Assembly: GCA_017546315.1 (NCBI GenBank)
Contig: JAFYXH010000012.1
Location: 7,617 to 71,616 of the forward strand
Direction: 5' to 3'
DNA: 64,000 nucleotides
Origin: Alphaproteobacteria bacterium
GTDB taxonomy: Bacteria; Pseudomonadota; Alphaproteobacteria; RF32; CAG-239
This document shows, piece after piece, positions 3,423 to 43,303 of the stretch; positions within the stretch are counted from its first letter, which is position 1; each line of letters begins with the position of its first letter. The notes below the pieces were generated by a model. The model saw nothing but the letters and a program-made list of their open reading frames with translations, did not search any database and had not been told where the DNA came from. The translations under genes were made by a program, and so were the position numbers.

Positions 3423-5828
3423 ATGAATAACATTTTTGATTTTGATGATAATGATGAAACATTTGGCACTGGTATTTTTGATAATATTAGCGCTTTAAAA
3501 CCTCAAGCCCCTTCTTTTGTGGATGGGTTGAACCCTGAGCAAAAACAAGCAGTATTAAAAACAGAAGGGCCATTGCTTGTTTTGGCAGGTGCTGGAACTG
3601 GTAAAACCAAGGTTTTAACCACTAGGCTTGCGCATATATTGAACAATGGAACTGCAAAACCTTGGAACTGTTTGGTGGTTACATTTACAAACCGTGCAGC
3701 AAATGAAATGAAGGAACGTGTTCGTAATTTTATTGGGGATGCGGTAAACTCTGTTTGGCTTGGAACGTTCCATAGCATTTGCGTTAAAATATTGAGAAGA
3801 TACCCTGAACTCGTTGGCTTGAAAGATAATTTTACTATATTAGGAGAGGACGACCAAAAAAGAGTTATAAAAAAGATATTACAAGATAATGGTATTGATG
3901 AAAAACAATTTACCCCACAAGCTGTTTTGGAAAAAATTTCTCGTTTTAAGGATAAAGGCTTTACGATAGAAAAAATCGAAAGCGAATATAAGGCCAATAC
4001 TACAACTCTTATCTACAAAGAATATCAATCTAGATTGTTAGAACTTAACTGCGTTGATTTTGGCGATATTTTGCTTTATGTTTTGGATATATTATTAAAG
4101 AATCCTGAAGTATTGGTTGAATACCAAGAAAGATTCAAATATATCATGGTTGATGAGTATCAAGATACAAACGTTACACAATATTTGCTATTAAGATTAT
4201 TATCTCAAAAATATAGAAACATTTGTTGTGTGGGGGATGATGACCAATCAATCTACTCTTGGCGAGGTGCTGAGATTGAAAACATCTTAAAGTTTAATAG
4301 TGATTTCCCTGAAGCTGAGACAATCAGATTAGAGAGAAATTATCGCTCCACCGCTAATATCTTAAATGCAGCAAGTGCTGTGATTAGCCACAACTCTAAA
4401 AGACTTGGCAAAACATTAAGAGTGGCCGAGCATAGCCCTGTATCTGATTGCAAAAATGAAAAAATCAAAGTAGTTAGCATGTATAGCGGAGATGATGAAG
4501 CTAAATTTGTTGCTAACAAAATTCAGAGCCTAAGATATGATGGTTTTGAATATGATGAAATTGCAATATTAGTTAGAACAGCTTCTCAGACAAGAAGTTT
4601 CGAAGAAGCTTTCATAAAAGAATCTATCCCTTATAGAGTGGTTGGGGGGTTAAAATTCTATGAGCGTGCTGAAATTCGTGATATGCTTGCTTATTTTAGA
4701 TTGATTTTACAACCGAGTGATGACCTTGCTTTTGAACGTATTATCAATAAACCCGCTAGAGGAATCGGCGACAAGACGGTTGATAAGATTAGGGATAGAG
4801 CAAAATTTGATAAGACACCACTATATCAAACAATGGTTAATATGGTGGAAGATGGTGAATTTAGTGGAAAGACACAAAATGCGTTGAAAAATGTTATTGA
4901 GCTAGTTAGCGAATGGAGAAAGATTTTGCCTGCACTTCCTTTAGGAGAATTTGCAGAGCAAGTTGTTAGCGAATCTCAATATATGGCAATGCTTGAACAA
5001 GATAAATCCGTTGAAGCTCCTGGAAGAATCGAAAACATAAAAGAGCTTCTTAACGTGATGGGAGATGCTGAAACATATCCTGACCTTGCTACATTTCTAG
5101 AACATGTTAGCCTTGTGATTGATAATGAATATAATAACAATGCAAACAAGGTTATTGTTTCCACTTTACATGCAGCAAAAGGTTTGGAATTTGATGCAGT
5201 ATTTTTACCTGGATGGGAAGATGGGATTTTCCCTCACCAAAAATGTATTGACGGAAATGATGATGAAGGATTGGAAGAAGAAAGAAGGCTTGCATATGTT
5301 GCAATAACAAGAGCTAAAAAGATATTATATATAACACTATCTTTTAATAGAAAGTTATATGGGCAGTGGCAAACTTATGCTCCTTCTAGATTTTTGAACG
5401 AACTCCCACCAAGTTGTATTGAACTAATCAACAATACTGGATATGCTAAAGTTGAAAATAAATCATACAGCGGAAGCTATGGTGGAGGCAGAGACTATTA
5501 TAAAAATAGCAACTCATATAATAATGAAAACTATAATAAGTATGATACTCCTTATAAAAAGAAAGAAAAGAGTGGGTATTTTGATAGCTATGAAAGTGCT
5601 GCATATGATGAGTATGATGATTATGGCTCACAAAATTACTATCAGAAAAAATCTCAAAGTGATTACTTCTATCAAAGTAAAAAGAAAAGTCCTTTGATTG
5701 GGATTAGAGTTTATCATCCAAGTTTTGGATATGGAAAAATCTTGAATGTTGATGGCGACAAATGTGAAGTAATGTTTGATAAAGTGGGTAAAAAGAAAAT
5801 TATGGGTGATTATTTGCAGAAATGCTAA
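3423..5828 (+). CDS. uvrD: UvrD/Rep/PcrA-type SF1 DNA helicase
   Basis: Motifs AGAGTGKT, MVDEYQDTN, VGDDDQSIYSWRGA, ERNYRS, LHAAKGLEFD, VAITRAK. The ORF track starts at 3375, but ATG 3423 (MNNIFDF) is the more plausible start. C-terminal Tudor-like tail IGIRVYHPSFGYGKILNV. Confidence 0.9.
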   Translation: MNNIFDFDDNDETFGTGIFDNISALKPQAPSFVDGLNPEQKQAVLKTEGPLLVLAGAGTGKTKVLTTRLAHILNNGTAKPWNCLVVTFTNRAANEMKERVRNFIGDAVNSVWLGTFHSICVKILRRYPELVGLKDNFTILGEDDQKRVIKKILQDNGIDEKQFTPQAVLEKISRFKDKGFTIEKIESEYKANTTTLIYKEYQSRLLELNCVDFGDILLYVLDILLKNPEVLVEYQERFKYIMVDEYQDTNVTQYLLLRLLSQKYRNICCVGDDDQSIYSWRGAEIENILKFNSDFPEAETIRLERNYRSTANILNAASAVISHNSKRLGKTLRVAEHSPVSDCKNEKIKVVSMYSGDDEAKFVANKIQSLRYDGFEYDEIAILVRTASQTRSFEEAFIKESIPYRVVGGLKFYERAEIRDMLAYFRLILQPSDDLAFERIINKPARGIGDKTVDKIRDRAKFDKTPLYQTMVNMVEDGEFSGKTQNALKNVIELVSEWRKILPALPLGEFAEQVVSESQYMAMLEQDKSVEAPGRIENIKELLNVMGDAETYPDLATFLEHVSLVIDNEYNNNANKVIVSTLHAAKGLEFDAVFLPGWEDGIFPHQKCIDGNDDEGLEEERRLAYVAITRAKKILYITLSFNRKLYGQWQTYAPSRFLNELPPSCIELINNTGYAKVENKSYSGSYGGGRDYYKNSNSYNNENYNKYDTPYKKKEKSGYFDSYESAAYDEYDDYGSQNYYQKKSQSDYFYQSKKKSPLIGIRVYHPSFGYGKILNVDGDKCEVMFDKVGKKKIMGDYLQKC

Positions 5829-15952: not shown

Positions 15953-17398
15953 ATGGCAACAAAACCTGAAATTAAAGATGAGAGCGGAGAAAATTACAAA
16001 TTTGGTTTTGTAACTGATATAGAAACCGAGATTATCCCAAAAGGATTAAATGAGGATATTATTAGGCTTATTTCTCAGAAAAAAGAAGAGCCTGAGTGGC
16101 TATTGGAATCTAGGTTGAAAGCATATCGCAAGTGGCTAACTATGGTTGAGCCTACTTGGGCAAAAGTTTCTTATGATAAGATAGATTATCAAGATTTATT
16201 TTATTATTCTGCTCCTAAGCAAAAGATTACCCCTCAGAGTTTGGATGAGGTGGATCCTAAATTGCTTGAAACATATAATAAACTTGGTATTCCATTAAAA
16301 GAGCAAGAAGTTTTGGCTGGGGTTGTTGCTGTTGATGCGGTGTTTGATAGTGTGTCTGTCGCGACAACTTATAAAGCTCAACTAAAAAAGCAAGGAATTA
16401 TATTTTGTTCTATATCTGAGGCGGTGAAAGAATATCCAAGTTTAGTCAAAAAATATTTAGGTTCAGTTGTTCCTTATACTGATAATTTTTTTGCTGCACT
16501 TAATTCTGCGGTGTTTACAGATGGTAGTTTTGTGTATATTCCTAAAGGGGTAAAATGCCCGATGGAATTATCTACTTATTTTCGTATAAATGCAAAGAAT
16601 ACAGGGCAATTTGAAAGAACTCTTATTGTGGCAGATGAGGGGAGTTATGTATCTTATCTTGAGGGGTGCACTGCTCCACAAAGAGATGAAAATCAGCTCC
16701 ATGCGGCTATTGTTGAGATTTTTGTTCATAAAGATGCCGAAGTTAAGTATTCTACTGTTCAAAACTGGTATCCTGGGGACAAGGATGGAAAGGGTGGAGT
16801 TTATAACTTTGTTACCAAACGTGCTTTATGTGATGGTGAAAACTCAAAAGTTTCTTGGACACAAGTTGAAACAGGGTCTGCGGTTACCTGGAAATACCCA
16901 TCTTGTGTGCTTAAAGGGGATGGGGCTAAAGGAGAGTTCTATTCTGTGGCATTGACCAACAACTATCAACAAGCAGATACTGGAACTAAGATGATCCATT
17001 TGGGTAAAAATACTAGTTCTAGAATTATATCTAAGGGTATTTCTGCCGGATTTTCTGACCAAACTTATAGAGGACTTGTTAAAGTTTCTAAAAATGCAAG
17101 TGGGGCTCGCAATTATTCTCAATGTGATAGTTTGTTGATTGGTAGGACTTGTGGTTCTCACACTGTGCCTTATATTGAAAATGCTTCTAAATCTGCAATT
17201 TTGGAGCACGAGGCTACAACATCTAAGATTAGTGATGAGCAATTGTTTTATTGCAAGCAAAGAGGTATGAGCGAAGAAGATGCTGTGGGATTGATTGTTA
17301 ATGGATTTTGCAAAGAAGTTATGCAAAAATTGCCAATGGAATTTGCTATTGAGGCAACTAAATTGATAGAGATTTCGTTAGAGGGAAGTGTTGGATAG
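15953..17398 (+). CDS. sufB: Fe-S cluster assembly scaffold SufB
   Basis: 481 aa with near-canonical SufB sequence ([40 protein letters not shown]). Confidence 0.95.
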
Positions 17399-17404
17399 AT
17401 TGGA

Positions 17405-17701
17405 CTATCTATACCTATAATATTGATTGCTTATGTTTTGAGCAGGGCGACTTTGGTAATTATTTTTTTTGCATACATAAACTAGATTTCTTGCTCCTAC
17501 CCATTCGCTAGATACTTTATCTTTTACATCAAAACCAAATGGACAATCTTCTTTGGCTTTCATATAACAATCACCAAGGCTTAATGCTGAGCCATTACAG
17601 CTTGCTTCGTATACTGTTTGTCCGTTTTCATCCATATATAGAACTCTTGAATATGCGCAAGATGTGACAAATAACAAAATTAAAACTATTGCCTTTTTCA
17701 T
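17405..17701 (-). CDS. small Cys-containing lipoprotein, family unknown (paralog A)
   Basis: Signal peptide with lipobox LFVTSC, four further Cys, C-terminal YYRYR. Strongly similar to the ORF at 18744-19055. Confidence 0.7.
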   Translation of the reverse strand: MKKAIVLILLFVTSCAYSRVLYMDENGQTVYEASCNGSALSLGDCYMKAKEDCPFGFDVKDKVSSEWVGARNLVYVCKKNNYQSRPAQNISNQYYRYR

Positions 17702-17726
17702 TTTATAACCTCTTTGATAAAAACAT

Positions 17727-17991
17727 AAAAAAATCGCCTTAAAGAGGCGATCGGAGAGTTAGAAAATCATGTTAGTAGAAATGACCGTTCAGGCCTTTAA
17801 AACTCGCAAAGGAGTTTCTGGACATACGCAAGAACCTCCCCGACCATTGTCGGGGATATATCTATTGATACCTAAAATTTATAGGTAGCAATATGACGAT
17901 ACTATATCCAGCACCGCGGTAAACAAAAGAGCTTTCTACGACTCCGAACCAACCTCTTGGTTCTAATATGGCAGATCTAGTCCGCCATACT
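17727..17991 (-). ncRNA. unclassified structured leader RNA (candidate riboswitch/attenuator), copy A
   Basis: Bounded by the promoter at 17998-18026 and the terminator ATCGCCT/AGGCGAT plus U7 at 17751-17727. Contains several hairpins conserved or compensated in copy B. Only 25 nt with an AGAGG SD separate it from the lipoprotein ATG. Confidence 0.6.
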
Positions 17992-17997
17992 CACTCT

Positions 17998-18026
17998 AGT
18001 TTAGCAAAATCGTCAACATTAGTCAA
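17998..18026 (-). promoter_or_regulatory. sigma70-like promoter of leader RNA A
   Basis: TTGACT, 17 nt, TAAACT on the minus strand. Copy B has the same -35 and spacing. Confidence 0.5.
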
Positions 18027-18148
18027 GAGTATTATTTTTTGTTAGCATTAACCTAATAATGCTATAAAAATTTATGATGATTTTAATGATTGTGTTAGTA
18101 TTAAATTAAACGATTGTTTATGATGAGATAAAATTTTAATATTTTATA

Positions 18149-18176
18149 TTGACTAATAGACAAAATGATTTATTGT
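18149..18176 (+). promoter_or_regulatory. sigma70-like promoter of divergent ORF A
   Basis: TTGACT, 16 nt, TATTGT. The homologous copy B site is TTGACT, 16 nt, TATAAT. The two share TTGACTnATAGACAAAA. Confidence 0.5.
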
Positions 18177-18202
18177 ATAGGCAAAATAAATTTTTTTATA
18201 TT

Positions 18203-18685
18203 ATGATTATGGGAAAACAAAACACATCTGTTGGGCAAAATTCGCTCGACTTGGTTTCGGCAAAAGTTTCTAAACTTTTCAAGGGTGTTGAACTTTCAGT
18301 TAAGACTGAAGCGGTTGTTCACTATCTTTACAAAAGAAAAAATCTTCACTTTAGTTTGACTGAAGCGGAAGAAGAAGAACTCTTCTCTGTATTGAACAAA
18401 GTTCTTGAGCCGAAAGAGGCTTTTGTAATGCTTAGAGAATATATTGAGCAATATGGAGTTAAGTCTTCGGAAGCAAAGAAAATTTTTGCAAACTTGAAGC
18501 GCTCTTTTGAGGTTTCTCTCAACTTTAAGGAAGCAGAATTGATGGCTAACAGCGAAGAATTACCTGACTGTTTGACAACTTTTACGCCTCCGAGCAACAA
18601 TATGCCAGAAAACGCCATCGTTAGTGATGAAGAACTGCAAAGTATTGTAAAAGAAGTTGAAGCTGAAATTGAAAACAGCAACTAA
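18203..18685 (+). CDS. hypothetical acidic helical protein (paralog A of divergent ORF)
   Basis: ATG at 18203/18209; the track's TTG start at 18149 is the -35 box. The core EAVVHYLYKRKNLHFSLTEAEEEELFSVLNKVLEPKEAFVMLREYIEQYG aligns with 19507-20154. Confidence 0.6.
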   Translation: MIMGKQNTSVGQNSLDLVSAKVSKLFKGVELSVKTEAVVHYLYKRKNLHFSLTEAEEEELFSVLNKVLEPKEAFVMLREYIEQYGVKSSEAKKIFANLKRSFEVSLNFKEAELMANSEELPDCLTTFTPPSNNMPENAIVSDEELQSIVKEVEAEIENSN

Positions 18686-18714
18686 GTTCAGCTAATATTT
18701 TTGGCTTAAAGATT

Positions 18715-18745
18715 AAACGGATACATTAGATGTATCCGTTTTTTT
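18715..18745 (+). terminator. intrinsic terminator (11-bp stem, T7), shared 3' end with lipoprotein B
   Basis: AAACGGATACA-loop-TGTATCCGTTT followed by TTTTT. A homologous terminator follows ORF B. Confidence 0.85.
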
Positions 18746-19055
18746 ATTTATATCTGTAATATTGGGTGGGTTGATATTGGGGACTTGATGTTTGATATTG
18801 GGTGTTGAGTGTCCTGTTGTTTCTGCATGAATATATCAACTTTCTGGAGCCAACCCATTCACTTGCGACCTTATCTTTGACTTCAAAACCATTTGGACAG
18901 TCTTCTCTTGCCTTTTTATAACAATCACCAATACTTAAAACCTCACCATCACAACCTGCTTCATAAACCATTTGACCATATTCATCCATATATAAAGGTC
19001 TTGAATATGAACATGCAGTACATAATAGAACTGCTAATATTGATATTTTTTTCAT
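18744..19055 (-). CDS. small Cys-containing lipoprotein, family unknown (paralog B)
   Basis: Starts MKKISILAVLLCTAC (lipobox) at 19055. The track ORF extends to 19184, but only by reading through the terminator and leader RNA. Confidence 0.7.
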   Translation of the reverse strand: MKKISILAVLLCTACSYSRPLYMDEYGQMVYEAGCDGEVLSIGDCYKKAREDCPNGFEVKDKVASEWVGSRKLIYSCRNNRTLNTQYQTSSPQYQPTQYYRYK

Positions 19056-19079
19056 AACCCTCTCCTTGCATAAAAACAT

Positions 19080-19343
19080 AAAAAAATCGCCTAAAAGAGG
19101 CGATCGGAGAGTTAGAAAAATCACACACATAAGATGACCGTCCAAGCCTTTAAAACTCACAAAGGAGTTTCTGGACATACGCAAGAACCTCCCCGACCAT
19201 TGTCGGGGATATATTTATTGTTATCTAAAAATTACAGATAACAATATGACGATGTTATATCCGCACCGTATGTGTTTAAAAGAGCTTTCTACGACTCCGA
19301 ACCAACCTCTTGGTTCTAACATAGTTAATGTGTTAACTATGCT
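19080..19343 (-). ncRNA. unclassified structured leader RNA, copy B
   Basis: Same promoter, hairpin and terminator order as copy A. Long near-identical blocks, with compensatory substitutions in the variable stems. Confidence 0.6.
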
Positions 19344-19349
19344 TTTTCG

Positions 19350-19378
19350 AAGATAGCAGAATCATCAACATTAGTCAA
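19350..19378 (-). promoter_or_regulatory. sigma70-like promoter of leader RNA B
   Basis: TTGACT, 17 nt, TATCTT on the minus strand. Confidence 0.5.
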
Positions 19379-19441
19379 GAGCATTATTACATATAACAAA
19401 CGAGCAGAAATTTGAGAAAAACAAAAAATTTAACAAGTTTA

Positions 19442-19469
19442 TTGACTTATAGACAAAAAGTAATATAAT
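19442..19469 (+). promoter_or_regulatory. sigma70-like promoter of divergent ORF B
   Basis: TTGACT, 16 nt, TATAAT (consensus hexamers). Confidence 0.6.
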
Positions 19470-19506
19470 CGTGCTACAAAAATATAATTTATAAAATTTT
19501 TTACTT

Positions 19507-20154
19507 ATGAGAAAATTATTATTTATTATTCCTTGGTGGAATGATTGTATTTGTGAAAGGGTTGATTCTTTATTAAAGGAGCAAGACATTAGCCCTAGAA
19601 TTGAAGCTATTATCTTCTATATCTACAAAGAAAAGAGATTGCCTTTTGTGCCATCTAATTTAGAAGAAACGGAAGTTTTTGACGTTTTGGAAAGATGTAT
19701 TGGACCTAAGGAAACTATAAAGGTGTTAAATAATTATTTTCACAAGTGCGGTTTTCCATCTAATCATTCAGCTTTTTTGTTAAACAAGCTTGTTAATTCG
19801 TATAACATTTCTGTGGAAACTTTGGAGACATTTAATGCTCTGAAGGATGCAAAAGATTCTACTGTTGATGAGTGTACTTTGGACTATATTGATAGAAAAG
19901 AGCAAGAACTTGTCTGTAATATTAAGTATTATCTGAAGTGTCAAAAAAACAAGTATGGTAAAAGGGCTCTTTGCGAAATTGAAAAGGACGTTTGGCTTGA
20001 CATTAGATGTCTTTGGGATGTGGTCGATAGTAGCAAAAATGAAGTTGAGTTTTTTAAGATTAAGAAACTTTTTAATGTTCTAAAGAAGGCTGTTAGCAAT
20101 GGTGAAAATAACATTCATCATGTTATCATGGATTTTATCGAACCCAAAAGATGA
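19507..20154 (+). CDS. hypothetical protein (paralog B of divergent ORF)
   Basis: The core EAIIFYIYKEKRLPFVPSNLEETEVFDVLERCIGPKETIKVLNNYFHKCG aligns with ORF A (about one third identical by hand alignment). The C-terminal half is unique. Confidence 0.55.
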   Translation: MRKLLFIIPWWNDCICERVDSLLKEQDISPRIEAIIFYIYKEKRLPFVPSNLEETEVFDVLERCIGPKETIKVLNNYFHKCGFPSNHSAFLLNKLVNSYNISVETLETFNALKDAKDSTVDECTLDYIDRKEQELVCNIKYYLKCQKNKYGKRALCEIEKDVWLDIRCLWDVVDSSKNEVEFFKIKKLFNVLKKAVSNGENNIHHVIMDFIEPKR

Positions 20155-43215: not shown

Positions 43216-43303
43216 GGAGCGTTGGCAGAGTGGTAATGCAGCGGATTGCTAATCCGTCATCCTGAATAGGGATGCATAGGTTCGAGTCCTATACGCTCCG
43301 CCA
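43216..43303 (+). tRNA. tRNA-Ser (anticodon GCU), CCA encoded
   Basis: Hand-folded cloverleaf. Acceptor GGAGCGT/ACGCTCC, anticodon loop TTGCTAA, long variable arm CATCC-loop-GGATG, T arm ATAGG-TTCGAGT-CCTAT, discriminator G plus CCA. Confidence 0.9.

Follow-up and report, generated by a model that had tools for sequence, protein, structure and literature searches.

What is the element that occurs twice in tandem, each time just ahead of a small lipoprotein gene, in a 64,000-nucleotide (nt) stretch of the Alphaproteobacteria bacterium assembly GCA_017546315.1 (contig JAFYXH010000012.1, positions 7,617 to 71,616 of the forward strand)? An earlier note on this stretch, the whole of which is referred to below as the window, took the element for a leader RNA present in two copies, A and B. 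Comparison with relatives from other assemblies demonstrates that an RNA family exists and that its fold is real and selected; the family is previously uncatalogued. On balance, it seems somewhat probable that the RNA is a cis-acting leader of the attenuator type, an orphan element resembling riboswitches, and that it controls how often transcription reads through into an exchangeable gene for an envelope protein (the cargo).

The elements of copy B are given here from promoter to gene.

19350-19378, minus strand: promoter found by consensus scan, with -35 hexamer TTGACT (19378-19373), 17-nt spacer and extended -10 element TGcTATCTT (hexamer 19355-19350).
19080-19343, minus strand: copy B RNA, about 264 nt from the predicted transcription start, placed from the promoter, to the end of the U-run.
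19318-19343, minus strand: H0, the 5′-terminal hairpin, from folds and the alignment.
19299-19316, minus strand: H1, hairpin GAACCAA-GAGG-UUGGUUC, with four of six pairs changed on both sides.
19282-19298, minus strand: P1 5′ strand, GGAGUCGUAGAAAGCUC, partner 19123-19106.
19269-19276, minus strand: P2 5′ strand, AACACAUA, partner 19131-19124, 7 of 8 positions paired.
19250-19268, minus strand: P3, hairpin with conserved loop GGAUAUA, three of six pairs changed on both sides.
19210-19249, minus strand: joiner J3/4 (UCA), the long AU-rich hairpin P4 and joiner J4/5 (AAUAUA), with 8 of 13 pairs changed on both sides.
19190-19209, minus strand: P5, hairpin UCCCCGAC-AAUG-GUCGGGGA, seven of eight pairs never varying.
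19171-19189, minus strand: J5/6, nearly invariant 19-nt joiner GGUUCUUGCGUAUGUCCAG, predicted to be single-stranded, from the alignment.
19153-19170, minus strand: P6, hairpin with three of five pairs changed on both sides.
19132-19152, minus strand: J6/2, conserved 21-nt joiner UAAAGGCUUGGACGGUCAUCU, from the alignment.
19124-19131, minus strand: P2 3′ strand, UAUGUGUG, partner 19276-19269.
19106-19123, minus strand: P1 3′ strand, UGAUUUUUCUAACUCUCC, which includes the 14-nt core UUUUCUAACUCUCC.
19080-19105, minus strand: intrinsic terminator with 8-bp stem GAUCGCCU/AGGCGAUU and U-run, directly abutting P1.
18744-19067, minus strand: Shine-Dalgarno sequence AAGGAGAGGG (19067-19058) and the gene for lipoprotein B (ATG at 19055, 103 amino acids (aa), signal peptide ending ...LLCTAC).

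Every element that the earlier note had named for this second copy was located on the minus strand and in the order found in copy A, with the promoter, the terminator and its seven T residues, and the ATG at the places it had given; the last U lies 24 nt from the ATG. The long-range helices P1 and P2, which close the core, had been omitted from that description. The segment TTGACTAAT, which constitutes the -35 region, is kept in many orthologous copies, and by consensus match alone both promoters of the window are of the sigma-70 type, each scoring 9 of 12 consensus positions plus the TG extension. H0 differs in sequence among copies and species, a hairpin being found in every variant examined, and the loop of H1 is mostly of the GNRA type among relatives (GAGA, GGAA, GAAA). 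The terminator, in copy B a G+C-rich stem at 19105-19085 followed by T7 at 19086-19080, is kept in every variant, with one of its stem pairs covarying between U-A and C-G.

The relatives used in the analysis of the fold were reached by several routes. The lipoprotein is represented by only five of 5.8 billion protein clusters, the window's own included, all of them from Alphaproteobacteria assemblies; the contigs of these relatives carry one RNA copy, in a slot with the order topA, RNA, lipoprotein and convergent sufB. A genome scan with an 18-mer added four further Alphaproteobacteria loci from deer-gut and other assemblies (two of them on separate contigs of one genome), plus L023, which is the L005 contig, and a metagenome scan with the 3′ block added 35 true loci, many of them from the human gut; about nine of 14 genome hits and two of 37 metagenome hits were discarded as chance matches. 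Three more loci were reached via homologues of another downstream lipoprotein, L061 being the most divergent member so far. A scan of viral contigs with the 18-mer GGAGGTTCTTGCGTATGT returned a single match, a chance one inside a topoisomerase-like coding gene.

Apart from these last three loci, 26 distinct variants were obtained, all from assemblies of gut and rumen Alphaproteobacteria, among them the human-gut "Acetobacter sp. CAG:267". A single human-gut type turned up unchanged 13 times; the protein encoded downstream of it, which is pilin-like and found on 638 contigs, is the one that NCBI lists under "Acetobacter sp. CAG:267". Counted with nhmmer, the RNA occurs exactly twice in the window and once in each locus fetched from elsewhere, with no additional copies. 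The family is confined to gut- and rumen-associated Alphaproteobacteria, its carriers probably belonging to GTDB order RF32, family CAG-239. One human-gut contig is unusual in that the 5′ third of its RNA (L044, 3822-4095), comprising H1 and the 5′ strands of P1 and P2, is replaced by unrelated sequence, so that P1 and P2 cannot form; this RNA has either decayed or recombined, or else the assembly is chimeric here.

Several lines of evidence establish the fold. Minimum-free-energy z-scores are -7.2 for copy B and -6.2 for copy A, with none of 200 shuffles folding as well, and range from -6.2 to -9.1 among four divergent members. On a plain MAFFT alignment that was not fitted to any structure, RNAalifold predicts 54 pairs, 16 of them compensated, and so recovers H1, P1, P2, P3, P5 and a portion of P4. 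A structural alignment was also made by hand from anchors and passed through MAFFT with N as the gap character. Standard pairs occupy 97.1% of its 1679 cells, versus 89.1% after shuffling and 38-46% when partners are slid by 1-3 columns, a percentage that is somewhat flattering because the register of P2 was picked from three options by best pairing, so that the alignment leans to structure. The safer evidence therefore comes from the unfitted result and from the count of different pair types. Both-sided changes occur in 28 of 68 pairs (143 cells), and none of 500 shuffles attains any of five measures.

P2, which is also present in the unfitted alignment, is represented by 14 different pairs of 8-nt strands, nearly all perfectly complementary, and all eight of its pairs covary; a strand pairs on average at 7.6 of 8 positions with its own partner versus 4.0 of 8 with that of another variant. 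P4 is wholly re-written yet paired in L052, L057 and L061, and P6 is likewise re-written but paired in L052 (AUUCCCG/CGGGAAU), L057 and L061. Since H1, P2, P3, P4 and P6 all vary freely in sequence with their pairing kept, selection acts on the RNA fold and not on DNA identity.

P1 (GGAG..UAGAAAR with UUUUCUAA..CUCC) and P5 (CCCCGA with UCGGGG) are almost invariant on both strands, as are the P3 loop GGAUAUA and the joiners J5/6 and J6/2. Eleven of the 14 pairs of P1 never vary, one changes on one side only (A-U/G-U) and two depart via unpaired cells. The UUUUCUAACUCUCC core is identical in all 26 variants of the first set and one base different in each of the later loci L061 and L063, an invariance that arises partly from selection, as the core is contained in the 16-mer and the scan pattern used to collect candidates. 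The invariant strands (19190-19196 / 19106-19111, 19295-19298) also contain runs resembling Shine-Dalgarno (GGAG, GGGGAGG) and anti-Shine-Dalgarno (CCCC, CUCUCC) sequences. Conceivably, GGGGAG-CUCUCC pairing could serve as an alternative to P1 and P5, or CUCUCC could mask the ribosome-binding site of the cargo in read-through transcripts; the segments being invariant, neither pairing gives a covariation signal.

Similar comparisons can be made between the two copies in the window, for which the elements of unit A are as follows.

17998-18026, minus strand: copy A promoter, TTGACT-17-TAAACT, found by consensus scan.
17727-17991, minus strand: copy A RNA, with the architecture of copy B (P2 5′ strand at 17924-17917, 3′ strand at 17778-17771).
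17405-17701, minus strand: gene for lipoprotein A, 98 aa, a paralogue of lipoprotein B.

Unit A thus spans 18026-17701 with an element order identical to that of copy B, and its terminator consists of a stem at 17752-17732 followed by T7. The two near-invariant blocks described in the earlier note are both present: a 42-nt block, TTAGAACCAAGAGGTTGGTTCGGAGTCGTAGAAAGCTCTTTT, occurs exactly twice in the window (19319-19278 and 17966-17925) where chance would give none, and about 85 nt around the CCCCGAC hairpin differ between A and B at two positions. Identity is 84% over the whole RNA, 86% over the core and 96% over the terminator, versus 68.5% at the nucleotide level for the lipoprotein coding sequences, and drops to 57% in the DNA that precedes the -35 hexamer; the RNA is indeed more conserved than the adjoining cargo gene. 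The lipoproteins, which had been called two thirds identical, are so at the nucleotide level but share only 58% of residues as proteins.

Within the AU-rich stem P4, both the C-G to U-A double change and the conversion of a mismatch to a pair that had been pointed out are found, and the promoter-proximal hairpins, though different in sequence, both fold. The broader claim that structure is kept wherever the copies differ holds for the stems generally and breaks down at P2 of copy A. In copy B this helix has a sequence of its own, ACACAUA/UAUGUGU, with 7 of 8 positions paired; in copy A only 4 of 8 pair, the 5′ strand GUUUACCG being of the L001 type and the 3′ strand CUACUAAC of the L019 type. 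P2 of copy A may have arisen by recombination between two alleles, possibly leaving this copy somewhat impaired.

Divergent from each RNA promoter lies one of two paralogous open reading frames (ORFs) on the plus strand (18149-18685, 178 aa from a mechanical TTG start, and 19507-20154, 215 aa). They have no Pfam match and are 32% identical over 91 aa, in keeping with the one third estimated earlier. Because these ORFs are absent from the single-copy orthologous loci, the duplicated tandem unit comprises ORF, RNA and lipoprotein together. Where the 178-aa ORF and the lipoprotein B gene converge, their ends are separated by a 12-bp hairpin with T-runs (18715-18741), which is the origin of a weak "L20 leader" match to Rfam (24.5 bits against a threshold of 58.7). 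This hairpin is probably a bidirectional terminator that insulates the copy A promoter from unit B.

Could the resemblance of the two copies arise without any functional RNA, from recent duplication or gene conversion, or from a coding region? Gene conversion as the sole cause is refuted by the orthologous loci, which in other species and genera carry the same fold with abundant covariation, so that the similarity of A and B is not just a product of recent conversion. As to coding, a 146-aa ORF (18744-19184) does exist mechanically. It begins with a TTG inside the RNA and crosses P1 as well as the terminator; the corresponding frame of copy A lacks the upstream extension, and NCBI annotates lipoprotein B with 103 aa, from a start that has a Shine-Dalgarno sequence and a signal peptide. 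The longer ORF was rejected as a gene on these grounds and is the artefact that the earlier note had held it to be.

A second, short frame (MVGEVLAYVQKL..., 19177-19127, with equivalents elsewhere) starts in the P5 loop, and the three variable positions of the invariant block fall on its third codon positions, as coding would predict. One of these three "synonymous" sites is, however, a compensated pair of P6, and the frame was rejected as a small ORF for want of a ribosome-binding site, because its stop codon moves and because its start is lost in L052; it is preserved only through nucleotide invariance. With conservation and covariation extending across many species, an explanation that dispenses with a functional RNA is hardly credible.

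Nor does the RNA belong to a catalogued family. When the window was searched with Rfam 15 (4227 models, including riboswitches, T-box, 6S, SRP, tmRNA, RNase P, c-di-GMP-I/II, raiA, ROOL, OLE and GOLLD), tRNA-Ser was the only match at the gathering threshold. At E-values up to 10, no match fell inside either RNA copy within 17300-19700, and at E-values up to 1, four loci with divergent members yielded one tRNA alone. ARAGORN found tRNA-Ser (43216-43303) and no tmRNA in the window. General literature searches turned up no relevant description of the RNA; in the published collection of Fremin & Bhatt 2021 (PMC8040213), the text gave no match and the sequence was absent from the 200 of 408 supplementary files that were searched.

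What, then, does the RNA do? Its association with the gene that follows is constant. A Shine-Dalgarno sequence and an ATG lie about 20-35 nt past the U-run, on the same strand, in all 26 variants. The first downstream gene belongs to at least seven unrelated families, five or more of them families of lipoproteins, and only one of these first genes does not encode an exported protein.

Small four-Cys lipoprotein: the window (twice), L001, L005, L007, L008, L019, L041 and L042.
Prepilin-like protein of 199-219 aa (...G RSMIEMLGVLAIVGILS...), matching Pfam N_methyl below threshold only: L011, L022, the L025 group, L030 and probably L018.
Lipoprotein of 141-145 aa: L026 and L028.
TRL-like lipoprotein: L032 and L036.
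Small membrane protein: L029.
PEGA-domain lipoprotein: L052.
Lipoprotein of 189-198 aa: L057, L063 and L065.
A 60-aa protein followed by a lipoprotein: L061.

The genomic contexts number at least five: between topA and sufB at most loci, after prfA (L022), inside the infB-rbfA / truB-rpsO-pnp region (L052), after a tRNA (L057 and L063), and after rho and a tfoX-like gene (L061). Where the RNA is duplicated, as in the window and in RGIG8741 (L011 and L018), each copy has its own exported-protein gene. Even loci whose flanks and RNAs are near-identical may differ in cargo, all of it co-oriented with the RNA: L036 (4858-7035) has four genes, whose products are a TRL-like lipoprotein, a small protein of the membrane, a protein with a signal peptide and one that is possibly Fic-like, where L042 (1903-2695) has two, a gene for the four-Cys lipoprotein and a 164-aa ORF. 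The interval between the RNA and sufB behaves as a variable cargo site. Within the window, a promoter-like site was sought in the spacer between terminator and ATG, and none fits.

Several further features of these neighborhoods may be noted. In the GC-richer lineage, a tRNA gene is situated a few hundred bases upstream of the RNA promoter (L057, 2-73; L063, about 4480-4555). A conserved protein partner was looked for among the divergent upstream ORFs and not found, these being unrelated between loci save for paralogues within a locus. A rumen subgroup has a conserved divergent ORF of 188-225 aa upstream of the RNA (MTQQEKFxIWD.T.P.V.EV.AYL.R..GK...), unrelated to the divergent ORFs of the window, at the following positions.

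L028, 10177-11614: rumen divergent ORF, twice in tandem.
L032, 4244-4810: rumen divergent ORF.
L036, 7444-8055: rumen divergent ORF.
L042, 3109-3720: rumen divergent ORF.

In three of some 25 contigs from the human gut, the reading frame of the pilin-like gene is shifted at a short run of A residues about 215 nt from its start (CCTGAAAAAGCC), with a G lost in L027 and L054 and A6 in place of A5 in L045, which leaves a prepilin-like protein of 84 or 108 aa; these could be phase variation, pseudogenes or assembly error.

A constant orientation and spacing, cargo without a promoter, and joint duplication of the RNA with an exported-protein gene together argue that the cargo is transcribed from the promoter of the RNA through the terminator and that the RNA acts in cis; the presence of a conserved, strong terminator within such a leader in turn points to conditional read-through, that is, attenuation. 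In the mechanism proposed, the sigma-70-type promoter would start the transcript and H0 would act as a protective 5′ hairpin. After H1 comes a domain of about 200 nt, closed by the stacked long-range helices P1 and P2 and organized as a multi-way junction with P3-P6 and two long single-stranded joiners. Most transcripts would presumably end at the terminator, giving a stable RNA of about 265 nt. The core could read a signal, which may be a small ligand or an RNA-binding or antitermination factor, and so set the fraction of polymerases that reach the cargo; the invariant joiners and loops are natural candidates for the binding of such a ligand or protein. It is suggested only tentatively that the RNA represents a sensor of a new class, be it a riboswitch or an element for factor-dependent antitermination, and acts as a fixed "expression site" for a hypervariable slot of surface proteins. 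The bacteria would hold the RNA and its promoter constant while exchanging unrelated cassettes for lipoproteins, pilin-like proteins or membrane proteins behind them, so that a single signal from the host or the envelope would govern the surface antigen that a strain has at the time.

To the structural leaning of the alignment described above must be added, among the points that weigh against a cis-acting attenuator, the outcome of the search for an antiterminator. The designation as a leader, which the earlier note had used, draws its support from linkage, in 26 of 26 variants and at least five contexts; a classical terminator/antiterminator switch is unsupported, the alternative-pairing segment proposed before not being identifiable as a conserved antiterminator. 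No antiterminator conserved across the family was found when one was looked for. In transcripts folded short of the 3′ strand of the terminator, the terminator 5′ strand often pairs with H1, extending P1, and in the GC-richer lineage (L052 and L061) this extended P1 replaces H1 and the terminator in the minimum-free-energy fold, sequestering the terminator 5′ strand; these folds suggest a possible lineage-specific antiterminator. As a family-wide device, the pairing of H1 with the terminator 5′ strand was rejected, being no better than that of shuffled H1 (mean z -0.19) or of H1 and terminator strands combined from different sequences (own -7.8 versus cross -7.0 kcal/mol), and it is weak in the commonest human-gut type.

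Other candidates were judged by eye on the alignment. Pairing of J6/2 AAGGC with the terminator 5′ strand was dropped as it is lost in L052, pairing of J6/2 CGGUC with terminator GAUCG as it is mismatched in L018, L030 and L052, and an alternative P3′ (AUCGUC with GACGGU) as it is not kept in L052 or L057. Two potential pseudoknots, between the P3 loop (GGAUAUA) and UAUAUCC and between J5/6 GUUC and J6/2 GAAC, display one-sided or wobble changes only. The cargo, moreover, has export in common and not biochemistry, and so suggests no ligand. Finally, the RNA's own promoter, 5′ hairpin and strong terminator with U-run fit a stand-alone small RNA as well, and most genomes have just one copy, placed in a conserved, syntenic slot (topA-sufB), as for a housekeeping RNA gene.

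Without a family-wide antiterminator, both factor-dependent antitermination and an autonomous stable RNA stay alive. The latter would be a trans-acting small regulatory or ribonucleoprotein RNA whose 3′ flank is a hot spot for cargo expressed by leaky read-through. In addition to the features just named, it would explain why the strands of P1 and P5 are invariant rather than covarying, as if contacted sequence-specifically, and why cargo varies between close relatives, as it does beside tRNA and tmRNA genes. Random insertion would be expected to give both orientations, however, and the cargo is always on the same strand at that one short distance, promoter-less, across all of the families and in five contexts. 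Furthermore, extra copies always come with an exported-protein gene of their own, the duplicated RNA is still constrained, and no integrase or mobile-element genes are found nearby. An autonomous RNA is for these reasons judged unlikely, though well short of negligible.

The swapping of cargo raises one further alternative, namely that the site is principally an "expression site" or recombination platform, in which the invariant RNA and sufB, or whatever other flank is present, serve as homology arms for the exchange of cassettes and any function of the RNA is secondary. The different cargo between the near-identical flanks of L036 and L042, the P2 of copy A that resembles a recombinant of two alleles, the foreign 5′ half of L044, and the presence in the slot of dprA (DNA uptake, recombination) adjoining topA would all be in keeping with this. 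Homology arms need no secondary structure, whereas P2, H1, P3, P4 and P6 keep their pairing, and as an account of the RNA itself a platform is improbable. The two roles are compatible with each other, such that a cis-acting leader could also stand in a site of exchange.

How does such a leader compare with known systems? Terminating riboswitches and other large leaders, such as cobalamin riboswitches and T-box elements, are of similar size, occupy the same position between promoter and gene on one strand, and share with the RNA a complex core closed by P1, invariant junction nucleotides, covarying stems and a terminator right after P1. The window RNA differs from them in that no Rfam 15 match and no conserved terminator/antiterminator alternative were found, and in the set of unrelated exported-protein genes downstream. 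As in riboswitches generally, a conserved, covarying, aptamer-like structure is found in a 5′ untranslated region; the downstream genes do not share a pathway, export signals being all that they have in common.

Leaders served by NusG paralogues of the LoaP, UpxY and RfaH type stand ahead of long operons and contain short recognition elements. They too place a conserved 5′ leader and an intrinsic terminator before variable genes for surface or secreted products, and their antitermination likewise allows read-through without an antiterminator structure in the RNA. They differ in that the RNA here is a 200-nt multi-helix domain and its cargo is usually one small gene (1-4). A Pfam scan of the nine ORFs nearest the element detected none that is NusG-like, no search aimed at NusG paralogues having been made.

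Like raiA, ROOL, GOLLD and OLE, the RNA exceeds 200 nt and is narrow in phylogenetic range, with joiners that are highly conserved and many helices that covary, and like them it was discovered from sequence data only; none of those RNAs matches it, and they do not consistently precede a gene as its leader. A promoter of its own, a hairpin at the 5′ end and a terminator hairpin followed by a U-run are features that it shares with independent small RNAs, but at about 265 nt and eight helices it is much larger and more structured than typical base-pairing ones, and it is invariably coupled to a promoter-less gene on the same strand.

To our knowledge, few complex bacterial RNAs of more than 200 nt covary this extensively, and every one discovered to date has led to new biology. 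The RNA described here comes from an uncultured and widespread gut lineage and precedes the surface proteins that the host, phages and competitors are most likely to encounter. Should it prove to be a sensor, it would bring with it a new ligand or factor, and a regulon, in organisms that cannot yet be grown; should it act in trans, it would be a candidate for a new housekeeping-like ribonucleoprotein. Under either reading, the finding supplies a testable element sharply delimited at 230-265 nt, a means of marking a locus of variable surface antigens, and a correction to the gene model of the 146-aa ORF.

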